A DNA stretch of 64,000 nt. It comes from Cyanidioschyzon merolae (taxonomy: Eukaryota). The notes under the pieces were generated by a model, which did not search any database, was not told where the DNA came from, and worked only from the letters and a program-made list of their open reading frames with translations. Of the stretch, positions 2,895-42,662 are shown in pieces; within the stretch, counting starts at the first letter, position 1, and every line of letters begins with the position of its first letter. Location of the stretch: NCBI GenBank assembly GCA_000091205.1, contig AP006496.2; one strand, given 5' to 3'. A program made the translations under genes and the position numbers.

Positions 2895-4720
2895 CTAGTT
2901 TGCCTGCGTTCCCCGATGACTCGCCAATCTGGAGGGCCAAAGTGGCCCACCAGCCGCCCATTCTGGATTGTAACCTTTCCGCAGATACTCGGCATGCATG
3001 CGTTCCGCGAGATAGCGCGCGCGTTGTTCGTAGAGGCGCGCATCTGCCCAGTAGGTAGCCGGGTGCAGAAGGCGCGAATCGAGCCCGGGAATCGCACGCG
3101 GCACCCGCAATCCGAAAATCGGATCTGGCGCGGACACCTGACTCGTAGGGATCGCATCCGTGGCGATGGCACGCACGATTGCCCGCGAAACCTCCAGGTC
3201 CATGCGTGCGGCACCGTCGGCAGCGCCGCCGCCCGCCCAACCGGTATTCACCAGGTACACCTGGGTGCCGTGACGCTCCAGTTTCTCATTGAGCAATTGT
3301 GCATAGACTTGACCATTCAACGGCATGAACGCTGCTCCAAAACAGGTGCTGAAAGTGGCGGTCGGCCTCAGCACACCACGCTCCGTTCCAGCAACCTTGG
3401 CAGTGTACGCTAGAATAAAATGATAAGCAGCCTGGAGTGGTGTCAACACAGACACCGGGGGCAAGACGCCAAAAGCATCGCATACGAGGAAAATGAATGC
3501 CTTGGGCGGTGGACCCTGGCGTGATGCCTCCCACTGCGGTATATTGTGGATTGGGCAGGTCGCTCGGGTGTTCTCGGTTTTGGAAGCGTCATCAAACTGG
3601 ACAACGCCGTGTCCATCCACGACGACGTTTTCGAGAATCGTGGACGGCTTTCGAATTGCACTGTAAAGAATCGGTTCCTTCTCCGGCGACAGGCGGATCA
3701 CTTTGACGTATATACCACCCTCCATGTTGCGGATCGCCGTTTCGTCCCAGGAGTGCTCGTCGTCCCCGATGAGTTTCCGCTCGGGGTCCGCGGATAACGT
3801 TGATTTTCCGGTTCCCGACAAGCCGCTAGATTTCACGCAATGGTTAGTGTTCCGTTTTGCTGAATCGGCCTGCTGCGTGCTTCTGCGATGTTCCAAACTT
3901 ACGCAAAACAAATAGTGTCCGGATTCGTGTCCGATAGGGAGCGCGTCGCTGCGCAGTGTAACGGCAAAATGCCTTTCAGCGGCAGCATTCCGTTCATGAT
4001 GGTGAACACCGATTTTTTCATTTCACCCGCGTAGCTCGTGCCAGCGATAAGCGCCAAGCGACGCTCGAAACCGAGCACAATAAATATATCCGAGTTCAGT
4101 CCCATTGCCCGATAATGTCGATTGCGCAAGCCGCTAGCGTAAACCACGGTAAAGTCCGGCTCGCCGAAGCTCGCTGCCTCCGCCGGACTCGATAGCGGTA
4201 TAAATATGTTGCTGGCGAAGGCATGATGCCAGGCGAGTTCGGTCACGACGCGGAGCTTGAGACGGTTCGGTCCGCTGGATACGAGCCCGTCGAAGACGAA
4301 CAGCTCAGGCAAGGCTGATAAATAGTTGGCAACCTGTTTCTGAAGTTCGTCGACGATTGTTCGCTCTATTGGCTGGTTGACCTCGCCCCAGTCGATGCGT
4401 TCCGCTAGGGGCGAGCCCTCGCGACGTTCGATGTAGCGGTCACGCGGCGACCGGCCCGTGAACTCTCCGGTATCCACGCAAAGTGCACCCGGTGGGTCTC
4501 TCGCTTCAACGCCCTCACGTCGTTGTAACGCCAGTGCTTTCGCCTCGGAGAACGGCAGGTTCCGGTGAATGGCACCAGGCGCACGCTGGAAGCCTAGCTG
4601 CCTCACCAAGAACTGCTCTACGGTTTCCGGAGACGTTCCGCCGCTGCTTAGGCGGCGTTGCCAAGTGCGAAGCAACCGTGGACCGCTTCTCAAGCTGGTT
4701 CGAAGGCGAGGAAACCACAT
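2895..4720 (-). CDS. PCK: Phosphoenolpyruvate carboxykinase (ATP). Two exons: 4720..3903 and 3825..2895 (stop included); 77-nt intron at 3902..3826.
   Basis: Two adjacent minus-strand ORFs in different frames give one PEPCK-ATP protein once the intron is removed. The splice junction restores '...PDTICF|AGLSGTGKSTLSADPERKLIGDDEHSWDE' (kinase-1a motif). Downstream motifs include 'KTENTRATCPI', 'CDAFGVLPPVS', 'YHFILAYTAKVAGTERG', 'TFSTCFGAAF' and 'VYLVNTGWAGGG'. ATG verified at 4720..4718. Predicted product ~582 aa. Confidence 0.85.
3826..3902 (-). other. Spliceosomal intron (77 nt): GTAAGT donor, CACTAAC branch point, CTAG acceptor
   Basis: Minus-strand reading: 'ttttgc|GTAAGTttggaac...ggaaCACTAACcattgcgtgaaatcTAG|cggcttgtcgggaaccggaaaatca'. 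It contains the in-frame TAA that terminates the upstream ORF. Confidence 0.8.
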
Positions 4721-37299: not shown

Positions 37300-39264
37300 A
37301 TGAGCTTCGTGGGGCCCAAACCGACACCGACCTCCCGCATACGGAAGGACGACTCGCCGGAAACACGCAGCAACGGCAGTAGTGTGTCGCCAGTGGATAC
37401 CTCACCGCGAACCGCGCCACAAGAGGCGCAGCTTCAGCTCCCGAAGCGACGTGACTGGTACCGGATTCCGAATGCGGCAAGCGCCGGCGGAGTCGGGTTC
37501 TCTGATCGAGCAGAGCTCGAGCGACAGCGCCACGTTGTCCGGGATATGCTTCGGCAGGTTGGTTCTAGCTTCATTGAAGGCAAAGACCTCGTGAACGTAA
37601 GTTTACCGATTCGTCTGTTTGAGCCGCGCTCGTTCCTTCAGCGCCTAACCGATGATTGGGCGTATTGCTCAACGCTATTGAAAGCAGCTGCGCACGCGAC
37701 CGACACACTCGATCGCTTCAAGTTAACGATTGCGTTTGCCATTGCGGGTCTACACAAGTCGGCAACCATGTTCAAACCGTTCAATCCTTTGCTTGGGGAG
37801 ACCTTTCAAGCGTGTATGCCTAGTGATGGAACCCGGATTTATCTGGAGCAAACTTGTCATCACCCGCCGGTGACGCACTGGCGCATCCGTGCCGCAGACC
37901 GATCCTATGAGTTCACCGGTTTCGGCGCGTACAGCGCTCGCGTGCAGCTATTTGAGAACGCGATTCGCGCACAACGCCTCGGCGTCAACGTTGTCCATTT
38001 TCGCGATGGATCGCGCATTATTTTCTGGCTACCCTACATGAAAATACATGGCATTGTGTTTGGCGAGCGGCGCTTGGAATATCTAGGAAAGGCGGTGTTC
38101 TTGTACGAACCGCCACGCAATTTCACGACATCCGGTATACCGAGCCGAGCCTCGCTCTCAGACGGTGAAAACACCGAACAACGGCGAAGCAGCGAGACTT
38201 TTGCGGAGCCGGATCGAGCGCTCGTTGCGGTCATGCTTCTGAACAGCGAAAAAACTGGATTCGTTGGCACGCTTCGTGGCGTTGCACGCGGCATCGGTCG
38301 CATGTTTGGCGGTCGTAACAACAACAACAGCAGCAGCAATAACGCTAACGCTAACACCAATGCCAATGTCAGCAAGAGAACCCCAGTCGCAGGTGGCCGT
38401 CCCGTTAGCTACCCGACAGGGCGAGCTTCGAATGGCGCCATATCGGGGTTGGATACGAGCCGTCCGATACCAACAGATGTGTTTCGTGGCATCATCGCTA
38501 GTGTGGATGCACCACAGACACCGAACGCTGGCTATCTTGCCGGTGACGACTCGAGCACGACTCCAAGTCAGCCAGGCAGGCCCGGGCAACCCATACTGAA
38601 CGCACAGCGACGCAAAAGAATTACCCGCCGGCAGGTCAAGCAGCTTCTGGCAGAGTTTGCTACGCGTAATGGTCCGCTTGCCTCCAGTCCATGGTCGTCC
38701 ATGGACTGGCGAGCGAGCCAAGACGTGGACCAGGTTGCCGTTCGAGAGCAAGCGCCGAGTCTGTCGGTCACCGATGGCGTCTCCGATGCAAACCTGCAGC
38801 GTTCGTCGTTGTCGTCGTCCTCATTGGCTTCATCGGCACGCAACGATCCGTACCGGGGCGCCGGCAGACGCCAGCGTTCCCACAGCGCCCTCGATCCCGT
38901 TGTATTATGTAGTTTCGAGGGCACATACCTCGGATTCGTTGATTTTGATGGGCAACGATACTGGGATATTCGTGATATGCCAGGTGAGGCGCCGCTTCCG
39001 GTGCCGCTCGAGGAGGCGCTGCCCAGCGATAGCCGTTTCCGCGAAGATGCGCGGGCGCTTGCAGGCGCACTGCAGCCTGGGTTAAGTGAGCGAGAGCAAA
39101 GCGATCGCATGATGAAGGCGCAAGCAGCAAAAGAACGCGTGGAGAATCAACAGCGTGCAGATCGGGTCCTTCGCGAACGAGGTCGCCGCGAGCGTGGCAT
39201 CAAAGAATCCAACGCATTTGTTCCTGAGCGCATTCTCCGCGAAGATACGTGTTACTGGCCTTGA
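37300..39264 (+). CDS. Oxysterol-binding protein-related protein (ORP/OSBP family) with a long low-complexity insertion
   Basis: OSBP fingerprint 'EQTCHHPPVTHW'. Conserved C-terminal 'FDGQRYWDIRDM...LPSDSRFREDARAL'. Asn/Ser-rich insertion 'NNNNSSSNNANANTNANV'. ATG verified at 37300. Confidence 0.8.
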   Translation: MSFVGPKPTPTSRIRKDDSPETRSNGSSVSPVDTSPRTAPQEAQLQLPKRRDWYRIPNAASAGGVGFSDRAELERQRHVVRDMLRQVGSSFIEGKDLVNVSLPIRLFEPRSFLQRLTDDWAYCSTLLKAAAHATDTLDRFKLTIAFAIAGLHKSATMFKPFNPLLGETFQACMPSDGTRIYLEQTCHHPPVTHWRIRAADRSYEFTGFGAYSARVQLFENAIRAQRLGVNVVHFRDGSRIIFWLPYMKIHGIVFGERRLEYLGKAVFLYEPPRNFTTSGIPSRASLSDGENTEQRRSSETFAEPDRALVAVMLLNSEKTGFVGTLRGVARGIGRMFGGRNNNNSSSNNANANTNANVSKRTPVAGGRPVSYPTGRASNGAISGLDTSRPIPTDVFRGIIASVDAPQTPNAGYLAGDDSSTTPSQPGRPGQPILNAQRRKRITRRQVKQLLAEFATRNGPLASSPWSSMDWRASQDVDQVAVREQAPSLSVTDGVSDANLQRSSLSSSSLASSARNDPYRGAGRRQRSHSALDPVVLCSFEGTYLGFVDFDGQRYWDIRDMPGEAPLPVPLEEALPSDSRFREDARALAGALQPGLSEREQSDRMMKAQAAKERVENQQRADRVLRERGRRERGIKESNAFVPERILREDTCYWP

Positions 39265-39461
39265 AGAGGTTGTATGCAAAGTGCCACATGTTCGACGCTC
39301 CAGGGCTTGCACGAGCACGCATCGATCGGCTTTTCGGACGCACGCATCCATGCATTCATGCGTGCATCCATGCGCTGCATGCATCGAGGCGCTGCGACGC
39401 TACCAGCACCAGCCATTGGCAGGCGTGCGGCACCGCCCGATTGATGCCGGCTGCTGCAGCG

Positions 39462-40460
39462 TTACGGCTGTGCGCGCGCTGTACTCGTTGCAGATACGCA
39501 GGGTCGAACGATAAAAATCACGCCGTCACCGCGCACAAACAGGCGCGAGATGAATCGCTCGCGCAAGTCTGGAGGCCGATCGGGTTGTGACTCCTGCCAG
39601 ATTTCCCGTACATGCTCCATAATGAGGTTAAAGTGCTTATCATAGGCGCGCAGCGTGCCGTAGAGCTTTTTATTATGACGACAGCTCACGAGACACGGCA
39701 CTCGATCGGTGATGCACCGGTCGAGCAGCGTGAACGGTGTTCGCGGCGAGCCGTTTGCGGCATGCACTGCTGGCTTCAGAGCTGACGCAGCGCTTTCGCT
39801 GCTATTCGGAATGCTCTGCGTCGTTGCTGGGGTCGTCGCTGCGATTAGCGTTTGGTAGGATGTCGAAGCTTCTGCTGCAGCGCTGAGCTCTGATGCGGCA
39901 GGCGTTGCCCCAGCTTGATCCAAGTGCGTGTCGTGTGCATCAAGGGGTCTTCGTTTCCGGGGCGCGGTAGGCGGGGCGCTGGCCGGCTCCGCCCAGCGTC
40001 GTTTTCGTCGTTGCGTGGTGGTCGTGCTCTGTGGATACGCGCTAGACTGGATCGGTGACGGCGATAGAGCAGCAGGGTCCAGGGTTTGAGCCAACTTCTG
40101 CTCCTGCTGCTGCTCCTGCTGCTGCTCCTGCTGCTGCTCCTGCTGCTGCTCCTGCTGCTGCTCCTGCTGCTGCTCCTGCTGCTGCTCCTGCTGCTGCGCG
40201 GACGATGTCGTCGTTGCGTCTCCAAGGTTGGTAGCCCGACCAGCTTCTCCCTGTGTGGCTCCAGGCGCGACGCTAGAGTCCTCATCGCGAGCCTCTTGTT
40301 CGAGTTTCACACCTAACAGGTCCAGCAAACGTTTTTGGAGTTCAGCCTTTCTACCGCTGGTTGGAGCTTCTCGCGCGGCAAGCTCCCGACGGAGCTGCGC
40401 CACCGTCAGTCCCGCTACAGCCCCCGCTTCTAAAGCAGTGGGCTGATCAACTGGAGGCAT
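39462..40460 (-). CDS. Sm-domain protein of the SmD2 family carrying a ~250-aa N-terminal extension with a SAP-like motif and a (QQQE)n repeat
   Basis: C-terminal Sm fold 'CLVSCRHNKKLYGTLRAYDKHFNLIMEHVREIW...RERFISRLFVRGDGVIFIV' matches SmD2 ([33 protein letters not shown]...KDRYISKMFLRGDSVIVVL, from memory). N-terminal 'LTVAQLRRELAAREAPTSGRKAELQKRLLDLL' is SAP-like. ATG verified at 40460..40458. There is no other in-frame ATG before the Sm domain. Confidence 0.6.
   Translation of the reverse strand: MPPVDQPTALEAGAVAGLTVAQLRRELAAREAPTSGRKAELQKRLLDLLGVKLEQEARDEDSSVAPGATQGEAGRATNLGDATTTSSAQQQEQQQEQQQEQQQEQQQEQQQEQQQEQQQEQKLAQTLDPAALSPSPIQSSAYPQSTTTTQRRKRRWAEPASAPPTAPRKRRPLDAHDTHLDQAGATPAASELSAAAEASTSYQTLIAATTPATTQSIPNSSESAASALKPAVHAANGSPRTPFTLLDRCITDRVPCLVSCRHNKKLYGTLRAYDKHFNLIMEHVREIWQESQPDRPPDLRERFISRLFVRGDGVIFIVRPCVSATSTARAQP
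40095..40197. repeat. (CTGCTGCTCCTG)n 12-bp microsatellite inside the SmD2-like CDS; encodes (QQQE)n on the minus strand
   Basis: Read directly. Confidence 0.9.
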
Positions 40461-41093
40461 TCCTGCTCGCCAAGAGTGCTTATTTGGGCGTCATTAAACG
40501 ACCAGCGTTGACGATTGCACCAGCTTTACAACGAACGTCACGGAATGCGATCCATTCGCAGGGCGTTCGCAGAAACGCGTGTTCCGACGCCGCGCCCAGG
40601 TGGCATTGCAGCAGCTAGGATCAAGCGTTGTTGGTGCGGGGCTTTCACGCCTCTGTAGAACAGTTGCTCCTGGTGTTGTCATTGTTTTGTTTTTGGGCAG
40701 ACGAGACGCTTACAGGTAAGCACTGGGTAGGTCGTGTTGTTCTCCACAATGAGAACTCTGAGTTAGCCACGAGAGGGGGCGCCGCTGCTTCACGGGCTCG
40801 AAGCCTTGTCGCTGGGCACCAGTCTGGCGGGATGGGTTCGGATCTAGTACTGGGTGCTGGTTTGAACCTGAAAACGCGTCTGAATCCGAGGTATGCACCA
40901 CGCTAAGGTGTAGTGTTTACGCTGTCGGCGCGTTGAAGCGGACTTGCTGTTTCAGGAGTGCACACGTGAAAGGCCCCTTGGCCGTGACAAGCAGCGCACA
41001 CTGCGTGCCGCAGCTCAACAGACGTACTGCTTTCGCCTGGAGGCGCCGAAAGGGCGGCGGTGGTGGTGCTTTGGCGACGACCTAAGCCGGAGA

Positions 41094-42662
41094 TCATAAC
41101 CGGGTATCGTCGCTGACCTGCGGCGTTGCAACTTGGTTCTCCAACTGAGCGTAGACGTCGCAAAGCTGTTGAGCGGTTTCCCTCGCGAGATCAAACTCGT
41201 CCAAGTTCGACGCAAAGGGCGGTTCTCGGCAGTAGTTGTCCAGAAAAGCGTTGCGTCTGCGAAGCTTGTCGTAGGCAGCGATGGTGCGTCCCAACAACGT
41301 CGAGATGCCAGTGTGGTTTGCGAGCATAAGGCCGCGGACGCGGTGGGTGCATTTCAAGTAGGGGGACTTGCGAGCGAGCGTCACCTGTACGTTTGCTGAT
41401 GTAAGTGGTGTGAAACCGAGGTTTTCACGCTCCATCAGTCGCTGCAAGCTCCTCTGCACTTCGGAGGGGTCCTCGATTTCACCCTGTAGAACACCCAGCA
41501 GGGAAAGGTAGGAGCCACGACGAAGCGGGCAGCTCGCCATCAAGCTTTTTGGCTGGACTAGGCGTCGCATCACATCGTATACAGAGGTTTTTCGAATACG
41601 GCTTTCAGCGACCGGGAGCACTTGCGGCAGGCAGTCGACACCGGACGCGATCTGGTTAGTGTCCACATGTTTGGCGTTCATCTGGTTGGCGCCAGCGCCT
41701 GTGTAAATCGTGAGCGGTGTACAACTTGCCACCAGAAAGTGACAAGGCGGGAGCGGCACCAATGTAGACATCAGCTCCCGCAGATCTTGGTGGCTGTACG
41801 CTGGGAATCGCATCGTCGTGGTCGACGCTGCCATGACCATCGACACGAGGGCGTTCGTCTGGTCGAAGGTAGGGTTGTCCACGTACAAACGCTCACTCGC
41901 GATGCGGTTTAGTGCTGCATTATCGAGCACCGTGACCATATCCGCAAATTCAACGAGTCGTCGCAAGGTCAGTAGCGAGTTGTACGGCTGCACAACAACA
42001 TCGCTGAACATGGCGTTCGCATCGTCTTCTTCAGCGCCGCTGCCGCCACCGCTGGCTAGCCCCGTGGCGGCGCTGCCGCTGTTCGCATAATCCCTTGCGT
42101 CTGCATGGCGTTCGCCCGAGGCCACTGCGTACGACTGGTTCGGAAGGATAGAATAGGTCTGCACGACCTGCTTCGGGTAGCGATCGTGAAGCTGTTCCAT
42201 AACGTAGGAGCCGAGACCGCTTCCGGTCCCGCCAGCAACCGAGTGGCAAATTTGAAAGCCTGCTAAGCACTCGGCGTTCTCCGCCTCACGGTCGATCATA
42301 TCGAAGAGGAGCTCGTCGAGCATCTGTCCCTGGGTATAGCCGCTCGCCCAGTTGTTGCCCGCGCCACCTCGATCCCGAATGTCAAGAAAATAGTTTTCAG
42401 GGTTGAACAGTGACCCGTAGGCGGAGTTCTTAATCGATTGAATCACGCGAGGCTCCAGGTCAATAAGCAGTGCTCGTGGAACGTGCCTGCGATCGTCCGC
42501 TTCATAAAAGAAGGCGTCCTTGCGGTCCACGTTCGGGGCTGCGTAAGGTTCTAGCCGCCCATCCGGCCCTATGGCGTGCTCCAAACATAGCTGCTTCCAA
42601 AACTCGAGACCAATCTGATTCCCACACTGTCCTACTTGCAGCGTAAGCACCTCGCGCGGCAT
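41094..42662 (-). CDS. TUBG: Gamma-tubulin (522 aa) with a Gly/Ser/acidic insertion
   Basis: '[31 protein letters not shown]...[14 protein letters not shown]...[17 protein letters not shown]' are canonical gamma-tubulin motifs. Insertion '[25 protein letters not shown]'. ATG verified at 42662..42660. Confidence 0.9.

Follow-up and report, generated by a model that had tools for sequence, protein, structure and literature searches.

A SAP domain, a predicted disordered linker and an SmD2-type Sm domain in one open reading frame of Cyanidioschyzon merolae 10D

Can a core protein of the spliceosomal small nuclear ribonucleoproteins (snRNPs) carry a SAP domain, or does a reading frame that joins the two conceal an intron or a second gene? 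This question is raised by an open reading frame (ORF) on the minus strand of a 64-kb stretch of the genome of the red alga Cyanidioschyzon merolae 10D (hereafter the window), in which an N-terminal SAP domain and a (QQQE)n repeat are followed by an Sm domain of the SmD2 type. A preliminary description of the locus had seen either a one-frame fusion of unusual architecture or a short 5' exon and an intron hidden in front of a canonical SmD2, and had proposed a comparison with related algae. The analysis showed that the locus is very probably an intron-free gene encoding the SmD2 orthologue of C. merolae 10D, an SmD2 that has acquired an N-terminal arm composed of SAP domain, linker and basic-tryptophan motif. 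The ORF starts with ATG and has 332 codons and a stop codon (Table 1). It cannot be longer because an in-frame TGA is located 11 codons upstream of the ATG. Methionine was found only at residues 1 and 281, of which residue 281 is within the Sm domain, while the out-of-frame ATGs at the locus led to dead ends of 25-146 amino acids (aa).

As the preliminary description had held, the C-terminus is a genuine Sm fold of the SmD2 type; it spans the last 80 residues or so, and its uridine-pocket residues are intact. An Sm fold comprises an N-terminal helix and a strongly bent sheet of five beta strands, with the Sm1 and Sm2 motifs. The Pfam LSM family (PF01423) was matched at residues 257-318 with an E-value of 1.8e-13. 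A phmmer search against PDB sequences aligned residues 241-320 with SmD2 of yeast, S. pombe and human (E=4e-16 to 1.5e-15; 4e-16 to 1.5e-13 when Chlamydomonas is included), whereas the next-best paralogue, LSm3, reached only 1e-6. In a profile search, the top matches that were checked after the SAP-bearing group (P0047, P0054, P0057, P0061 and P0063) were named SmD2. The AlphaFold2 model of residues 225-332 showed one helix and five strands with a mean predicted local distance difference test score (pLDDT) of 78.9 and a core above 90; the isolated domain was used instead of the full-length model computed with six sequences, in which the Sm domain was poor (pLDDT 50-68). Foldseek comparison of the model with the PDB showed that the best 29 matches were all Sm-core chains of spliceosome or snRNP entries. 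The chains cross-checked as SmD2 (3jb9_G, 3jcm_U, 9l5r_c, 5xjt_B and 8xi2_d) had a probability of 1.00, and the matches had an rmsd of about 1-3 Å (1.1-1.6 for most) over about 80 columns with 34-39% identity. The uridine-pocket residues H276 and N278 in loop L3 and R310, G311 and D312 in loop L5 were invariant in the alignment with canonical SmD2s. The ratio of nonsynonymous to synonymous substitution rates (dN/dS) of the Sm domain was 0.14 in the Cyanidiococcus pair and approximately 0.05 between lineages.

The Sm fold, the Sm1 and Sm2 motifs and the H, N and RGD residues are thus shared with canonical SmD2 (human SNRPD2, yeast Smd2), but the overall architecture is not canonical. At 332 aa the protein is about three times longer than the solved SmD2 chains (94-118 aa), in line with the excess size remarked on earlier. 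In place of the short acidic N-terminal helix it has the SAP domain and about 190 aa of linker; the alignments with the PDB SmD2s begin at chain residue 24-29, and nothing in the present protein corresponds to the canonical N-terminal segment. In addition, loop L4 is short and not lysine-rich.

A protein of this type could also be an SmD2-derived, Sm-like paralogue with a separate job, as a chromatin or messenger ribonucleoprotein factor, while a canonical SmD2 encoded elsewhere builds the snRNP core. Sm proteins with long extensions and roles outside the ring exist (ataxin-2, LSm12/14 and EDC3), and the lack of the lysine-rich loop L4 and of the acidic N-terminal helix would fit such a protein. 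However, the very strong constraint on the Sm domain and the retention of the uridine-pocket H, N and RGD residues are expected of an essential ring subunit, and both JGI and UniRef label these proteins as SmD2. Exactly seven Sm proteins were counted in C. merolae in the literature (PMC4829280), and a 2026 preprint (10.64898/2026.05.17.725761) reports that all C. merolae splicing proteins have orthologues in Cyanidiococcus and Cyanidium. A paralogue with a separate job was thus judged very unlikely, on an analysis that covered 64 kb of the genome.

The N-terminal motif, previously described as SAP-like, proved to be a SAP domain. Pfam PF02037 was matched at residues 17-49 with an E-value of 1.6e-10 and 40.8 bits against a gathering cutoff of 23.9. 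The AlphaFold2 model had a pLDDT of 88-94 over residues 11-50 and placed the SAP helices at residues 20-29 and 38-49. A SAP domain is a helix-extended-helix unit of roughly 35 residues in which the hydrophobic spacing and a Gly-x-Lys turn are conserved. Every orthologue also passed the Pfam SAP model, those of Cyanidium twice. A total of 13 SAP positions were invariant across lineages (T19, V20, Q22, R24, E26, L27, A28, G36, R37, K38, L41, R44 and L45), and dN/dS in the Cyanidiococcus pair was approximately 0.35. Judged from these substitution patterns, the SAP domain is under purifying selection. The closest solved SAP domains were those of MKL1 (E=0.01) and hnRNPUL1 (E=0.14). Expected tryptic peptides within residues 1-240 of the protein include ELAAREAPTSGR, LLDLLGVK and WAEPASAPPTAPR.

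The comparison with related algae showed the same architecture in divergent relatives and supported the fusion. A word-index search returned nine proteins, all nine with precomputed SAP and LSM domains. Four were near-identical environmental alleles with 90-92% identity owing to repeat length, two belonged to Cyanidiococcus yangmingshanensis (39-40%), one to a third lineage, P0007 (GCA_041825655.1; 37%), and two were of Cyanidium caldarium type (34-36%) and carried the UniRef name 'snRNP core protein D2'. Overall, the orthologues with SAP and LSM domains had 34-43% identity, and the orthologous ORFs encoded 282-316 aa in the same arrangement, with the exception of P0052 at 406 aa as called. 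The Cyanidium-type orthologues (P0008, P0020 and P0009; L013 5001-5915) had two tandem SAP domains before the Sm domain (E about 1e-23), and their loop L4 was longer. The gene order FancD2, Mis12, gamma-tubulin, SAP-SmD2 and oxysterol-binding protein (OSBP) was conserved in the four lineages with sufficient flanking DNA for comparison, namely the 10D type, P0007, Cyanidiococcus and the Cyanidium-like L013.

A profile search run exhaustively over 1.84 billion representative proteins concurred, with eight matches below 1e-30. Four were the known representatives and two were additional proteins with SAP and LSM domains from Logan assemblies (P0049 and P0052), while the remaining two were tandem-duplicated SmD2 gene models with plant-SmD2-like sequences. 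Longer matches lower in the profile list were, among those checked, plain SmD2 or fused gene-model artefacts. No combination of SAP and Sm domains, and hence no other SAP domain on a stoichiometric core snRNP subunit, was found in this search outside the six clusters.

Some of the collected sequences had features of their own. P0052 (L014 4700-6221) is located on a contig of 68% GC with EnY2, RPL37ae and HSF as neighbours. It looks truncated as called, with the frame open upstream to another methionine about 60 codons earlier, and it has neither the tryptophan motif of the linker nor the conserved tryptophan of the Sm domain. P0014, a 140-aa call on a 1205-bp JGI contig, starts with divergent sequence (MPQTARREHY...) and is normal from YQTLIAAT onwards; it is probably an artefact of the contig edge or of a frameshift and not a short isoform. 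The DKHFNL variant of the Sm1 motif, seen in the cyanidialean proteins, is also present in two canonical SmD2s of 104 aa, P0047 (L008 4001-4315) and P0048. As these belong to a eukaryote whose sequence is AT-rich (33% GC) and rich in poly-Asn, DKHFNL is not a cyanidialean signature. These two, found in word-index searches with the Sm domain only, were tried as the canonical SmD2 of Galdieria and set aside, as the host is not evidently Galdieria; no date for the fusion was drawn from them.

The reading frame that joins the two domains was open in every lineage. The stretch between SAP and Sm (110-289 codons) had no stop in frame 0 in six of six lineages, while the other frames had up to 15 stops each, although one reverse frame was also open in three lineages. 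The joint composition-based probability of an open linker frame in the six lineages was approximately 1e-14. As the preliminary description had stated, no in-frame ATG other than that at the 5' end could serve as a start. An alternative start codon was rejected since the sole other in-frame ATG is within the Sm domain. No internal methionine is conserved among the orthologues, and P0006, P0007, 10D and Cyanidium have none before the Sm domain. On this pattern of conservation, the ORF as a whole is a single coding unit whose frame is under constraint.

One ORF might still give two products, either because transcription starts internally and translation begins at a non-AUG codon or because the protein is cleaved, so that an SmD2 of normal size enters the ring and the arm becomes a separate protein or a pro-sequence. 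In favour are the length, predicted disorder and fast evolution of the linker, its dibasic clusters (RRKRR and RKRR) as possible protease sites, and a methionine just before the Sm domain in P0005 ('SSMTPRTPF') and P0049 ('KRMPLSLL'). However, these methionines are not conserved, with isoleucine in P0006 and none in 10D, P0007 and Cyanidium, and no sign of internal initiation was seen in the sequence. An open frame across 110-290 codons of linker in six lineages is needed only if the linker is translated through. Production of two proteins was considered very unlikely.

The search for intron signals used the features known for this group. According to the 2026 preprint (10.64898/2026.05.17.725761), the GUAAGU 5' splice site of cyanidialean introns is strongly conserved, the ACUAACC branch site is virtually invariant, in-frame stops are present in about 85% of the introns, and an RNA-seq census counted only 39 introns in C. 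merolae. No GTAAGT, ACTAACC or ACTAAC was found on the minus strand of 39265-41093, the interval between the flanking genes. A wider motif search of the same interval and strand showed an isolated GTAAG (40713) and an isolated CTAAC (40766); both are located in the spacer upstream of the gene, and their order does not suit an intron. As a positive control, the same motif search picked the only GTAAGT...ACTAACC...AG combination of the 64-kb window, an intron at approximately 3826-3902. This intron belongs to an ATP-dependent phosphoenolpyruvate (PEP)-carboxykinase-like gene on the minus strand (2895-4720), where it splits the ORFs 3899-4720 and 2895-3911, with GTAAGT at 3902-3897, ACTAACC at 3848-3842, the 3' AG at about 3827/3826 and an in-frame TAA at the 5' splice site.

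The short 5' exon with an intron raised in the preliminary description, or an intron in the linker, was therefore rejected since the intron signals are absent from the coding strand of 39265-41093. A mature canonical SmD2 of about 100 aa, with the SAP and Q-rich stretch non-coding or part of another gene, would suit the size of canonical SmD2 (94-118 aa), the near-neutral (dN/dS about 0.8) and predicted disordered linker, and the inefficient splicing of the clade, in which 12 unannotated introns had been found earlier according to the preprint (10.64898/2026.05.17.725761), but it is almost certainly wrong, because the coding strand lacks both motifs that the control intron has, a linker of 195 codons is open in six lineages in a group where most introns contain in-frame stops, a short SmD2 would have no in-frame ATG here and no conserved methionine in the relatives, the SAP domain is under apparent purifying selection and always in frame with Sm, and the census of introns, used here as a total, is very small.

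The linker between the two domains was predicted to be largely disordered, with pLDDT below 50 at residues 55-84 and 128-244. The Q/E repeat noted in the preliminary description consists of 8.3 copies of a 12-bp unit with 100% matches and encodes (QQQE)n at residues of about 88-121. AlphaFold2 predicted the repeat region as a single long helix (residues 87-126, pLDDT 79-87). The copy number varies but always in frame, as the near-identical environmental alleles encode 307, 310, 315, 318 and 332 aa, and the alignment showed the repeat in the 10D lineage only, with none in the other lineages. It is best viewed as a microsatellite that differs between strains, is tolerated and merely lengthens the spacer.

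A short basic-aromatic motif was the only linker element that could be followed between lineages. It reads RRKRRWAE in 10D, RKRRWQD in P0007, RRKRRWQA in Cyanidiococcus, KRSRWEA in P0049 and KRSRFQS in Cyanidium. The tryptophan after the basic cluster is kept in four lineages and is phenylalanine in the fifth, while the linkers are otherwise unalignable. In 10D it is W156, the sole tryptophan of the linker, in the peptide TTTQRRKRRWAEPAS. That tryptophan persists where the rest of this predicted disordered stretch cannot be aligned speaks for a binding motif and not just for positive charge. A second basic cluster, RKRR, follows the first by 12 residues in 10D, a spacing that is that of a bipartite nuclear localisation signal; outside the 10D lineage this cluster is kept only in part, in P0007 (KR). 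From its sequence, the basic motif may be a ligand motif (ULM) of the U2AF homology motif (UHM), part of a nuclear localisation signal, or both, and a nuclear localisation signal would account for the basic residues equally well.

The resemblance to ULMs concerns those of SF1 and SF3b1/SF3b155, which also have a basic run directly before tryptophan in a disordered region of a splicing protein. SF1 carries KRSRW, and the ELM-style ULM pattern is [KR]{1,4}[KR].[KR]W. in regular-expression form. The minimal ULM peptide of SF3b1 is KSRWDE (PMC7648758), with which KRSRWEA, RKRRWQD and RRKRRWAE of the present proteins can be compared; the likeness was drawn from this published core.

SmD2 has its place between SmD1 and SmF in the heptameric ring that forms on the Sm site of the U2, U4 and U5 snRNAs. 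If the protein is the SmD2 of C. merolae, its Sm domain would take this place in the U2, U4 and U5 snRNPs, and each of these snRNPs would therefore carry one flexible arm. U2, U4 and U5 are the Sm-class snRNAs of C. merolae, and Sm proteins were found by snRNA pull-down mass spectrometry (PMC5435867). In the Cyanidioschyzon, Cyanidiococcus and Cyanidium group the arm consists of one SAP domain, or two in Cyanidium, and a fast-evolving, predicted disordered linker, which has about 190 residues in 10D and about 110-290 across the group and contains the basic-tryptophan motif. SAP domains act as tethers to nucleic acid or chromatin. Direct DNA binding is described for the SAP domain of SAF-A (PMC11419091). 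By analogy, the SAP head may bind DNA or structured nucleic acid and so concentrate snRNPs on chromatin or nascent transcripts. The arm would likely tether Sm snRNPs to nucleic acid or to partner proteins, and the most economical reading, on the analogy with other SAP proteins, would be that it concentrates snRNPs on chromatin or nascent ribonucleoprotein. The basic-tryptophan motif could be a nuclear localisation signal, a dock resembling a UHM ligand, or both at once; one candidate partner for such a dock is the UHM of CmMud2/U2AF65. This UHM protein is among those that C. merolae is predicted to keep (PMC10158995), and a ULM on a core protein of U2, U4 and U5 would connect these snRNPs directly with the branch-site complex.

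Several observations weigh against this interpretation of the arm and of the locus. The linker had a dN/dS of approximately 0.8 in the Cyanidiococcus pair and of 0.5-0.6 between lineages, where dS was saturated; by these ratios its amino-acid evolution is almost neutral, the basic-tryptophan motif excepted. The docking step in particular is weak because tryptophan is replaced by phenylalanine in Cyanidium, the motif is not recognisable in P0052, the most divergent lineage, and alanine follows tryptophan in 10D, all of which are departures from the known ULMs. A phmmer comparison of the motif region with PDB sequences gave nothing relevant and one irrelevant match. Finally, a collection of 15 billion proteins contained the two flanking 10D proteins, under GenBank, UniRef and EukProt accessions, but not the exact 332-aa product. 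Possible reasons are a GenBank gene model for the locus (presumably BAM81374.1) that departs from the ORF, or a repeat whose length varies between assemblies. A JGI metagenome contig carries a 332-aa allele of the SAP-SmD2 ORF that differs from 10D by 5 nucleotides.

A broader proposal would see the SAP and basic-tryptophan arm as an adaptation of a spliceosome that works without U1. C. merolae is an intron-poor red alga with a spliceosome without the U1 snRNP, as stated in PMC5435867 and PMC10158995. U1, U2AF35 and Lea1/Msl1 are missing, recognition of the 5' splice site has been called 'a mystery', and transcription and splicing have been predicted to be uncoupled (PMC10158995). Under this proposal every U2, U4 and U5 snRNP would have a SAP head that binds chromatin or nucleic acid and a ULM-like dock for Mud2/U2AF65, and SmD2 would supply co-transcriptional recruitment and early bridging of the intron, in place of contacts that are made elsewhere by the U1 snRNP, U2AF35 and Lea1/Msl1. 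It was regarded as unlikely in this extended form.

The preferred reading, an SmD2 with an acquired N-terminal arm, was also compared with other known systems. SAF-A/hnRNP U, SAFB, Acinus and hnRNPUL1 likewise combine an N-terminal SAP domain with a disordered joint and an RNA-binding or ribonucleoprotein module. Their partner modules differ from the one in the present protein, which is a core Sm subunit, and the SAP domain, going by sequence, would be stoichiometric in every Sm-class snRNP; no SPRY, AAA, RGG or RRM domain was found in the 332-aa protein with Pfam. SARNP/Tho1/MOS11 also have an N-terminal SAP domain followed by a disordered region with basic-aromatic motifs, and the SAP domain of yeast Tho1 is of a very similar sequence type (LTVVQL...GG.K.EL.QRL), but the C-terminal module here is an Sm domain. 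An origin from SARNP/Tho1 was rejected since no Pfam match to Tho1_MOS11_C was obtained at E≤0.1. Disordered extensions of the Sm fold with roles in localisation or partner binding have precedents in the RG tails of SmB, SmD1, SmD3 and LSm4 and in ataxin-2, LSm14 and EDC3. Unlike the arm described here, the extensions of these tailed Sm and LSm proteins are C-terminal and have no SAP domain.

The combination of SAP and SmD2 was already visible in automatic annotation, as precomputed Pfam SAP and LSM domains and as the SmD2 names of JGI and UniRef. No discussion of a SAP domain on SmD2 was found in the accessible literature, including Reimer 2017, Black 2023, Hudson 2015, Qiu 2018 and the text of the 2026 preprint. 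In its supplement, that preprint lists 'novel sequence regions' for six splicing proteins (10.64898/2026.05.17.725761), and the feature may have been noticed there. C. merolae and its relatives are a model for a minimal spliceosome that works without the U1 snRNP, and PMC10158995 names as open questions how snRNPs find introns in C. merolae and whether splicing is coupled with transcription. With its SAP domain and conserved tryptophan motif, a core Sm subunit of this kind offers a concrete hypothesis, namely that the arm may recruit snRNPs to chromatin or to Mud2, and this is genetically testable because C. merolae allows homologous recombination. In general, it would mean that 'universal' Sm core proteins are able to gain folded accessory domains.

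Table 1. Coordinates of the SAP-SmD2 reading frame, its parts and the adjoining spacer in the 64-kb window
Feature	Position	Strand	Basis or remark
Complete single-exon ORF, SAP-linker-SmD2	39462..40460	-	ORF list; both Pfam domains in one frame
SAP domain, residues 17-49, LTVAQLRRELAAREAPTSGRKAELQKRLLDLLG	40314..40412	-	Pfam PF02037
Linker, residues 50-240, including repeat and basic motifs	39741..40313	-	Fast-evolving, predicted disordered
12-bp microsatellite, CTGCTCCTGCTG on the plus strand, 8.3 exact copies	40098..40197	-	Tandem Repeats Finder
Basic-tryptophan motif RRKRRWAE, residues 151-158	39987..40010	-	Sole recognisably conserved linker element
Second basic cluster RKRR, residues 168-171	39948..39959	-	Motif scan
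SmD2-type Sm domain, residues 241-320	39501..39740	-	Helix alpha1 and five beta strands, Sm1 and Sm2 motifs
Spacer between convergent OSBP (plus) and SmD2 (minus) stop codons	39265..39461		197 bp; ORF coordinates

Both neighbours of the SmD2 gene were exact matches to C. merolae 10D proteins, the plus-strand OSBP gene (37300-39264) to BAM81373.1 and the minus-strand gamma-tubulin gene (41094-42662) to BAM81375.1. Scans of the 64-kb window for Rfam families and tRNAs found nothing. The 3' ends of the OSBP and SmD2 genes are presumably both within the spacer that separates their stop codons. This spacer contains an imperfect, partly palindromic 17-bp tandem of the GCATGCATCC type at 39359-39395 (Tandem Repeats Finder), which may be related to 3'-end formation of the two genes. 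On the other side, the spacer 5' of the SmD2 gene holds a plus-strand ORF of 92 aa (40628-40906) with no Pfam match. It was called as a gene of 90-92 aa at the equivalent place in several metagenome and Logan contigs and is probably a spurious call. Finally, the gamma-tubulin gene encodes 522 aa, and the Pfam Tubulin GTPase domain was matched as two stretches, which suggests a lineage-specific insertion rich in glycine, serine and acidic residues.

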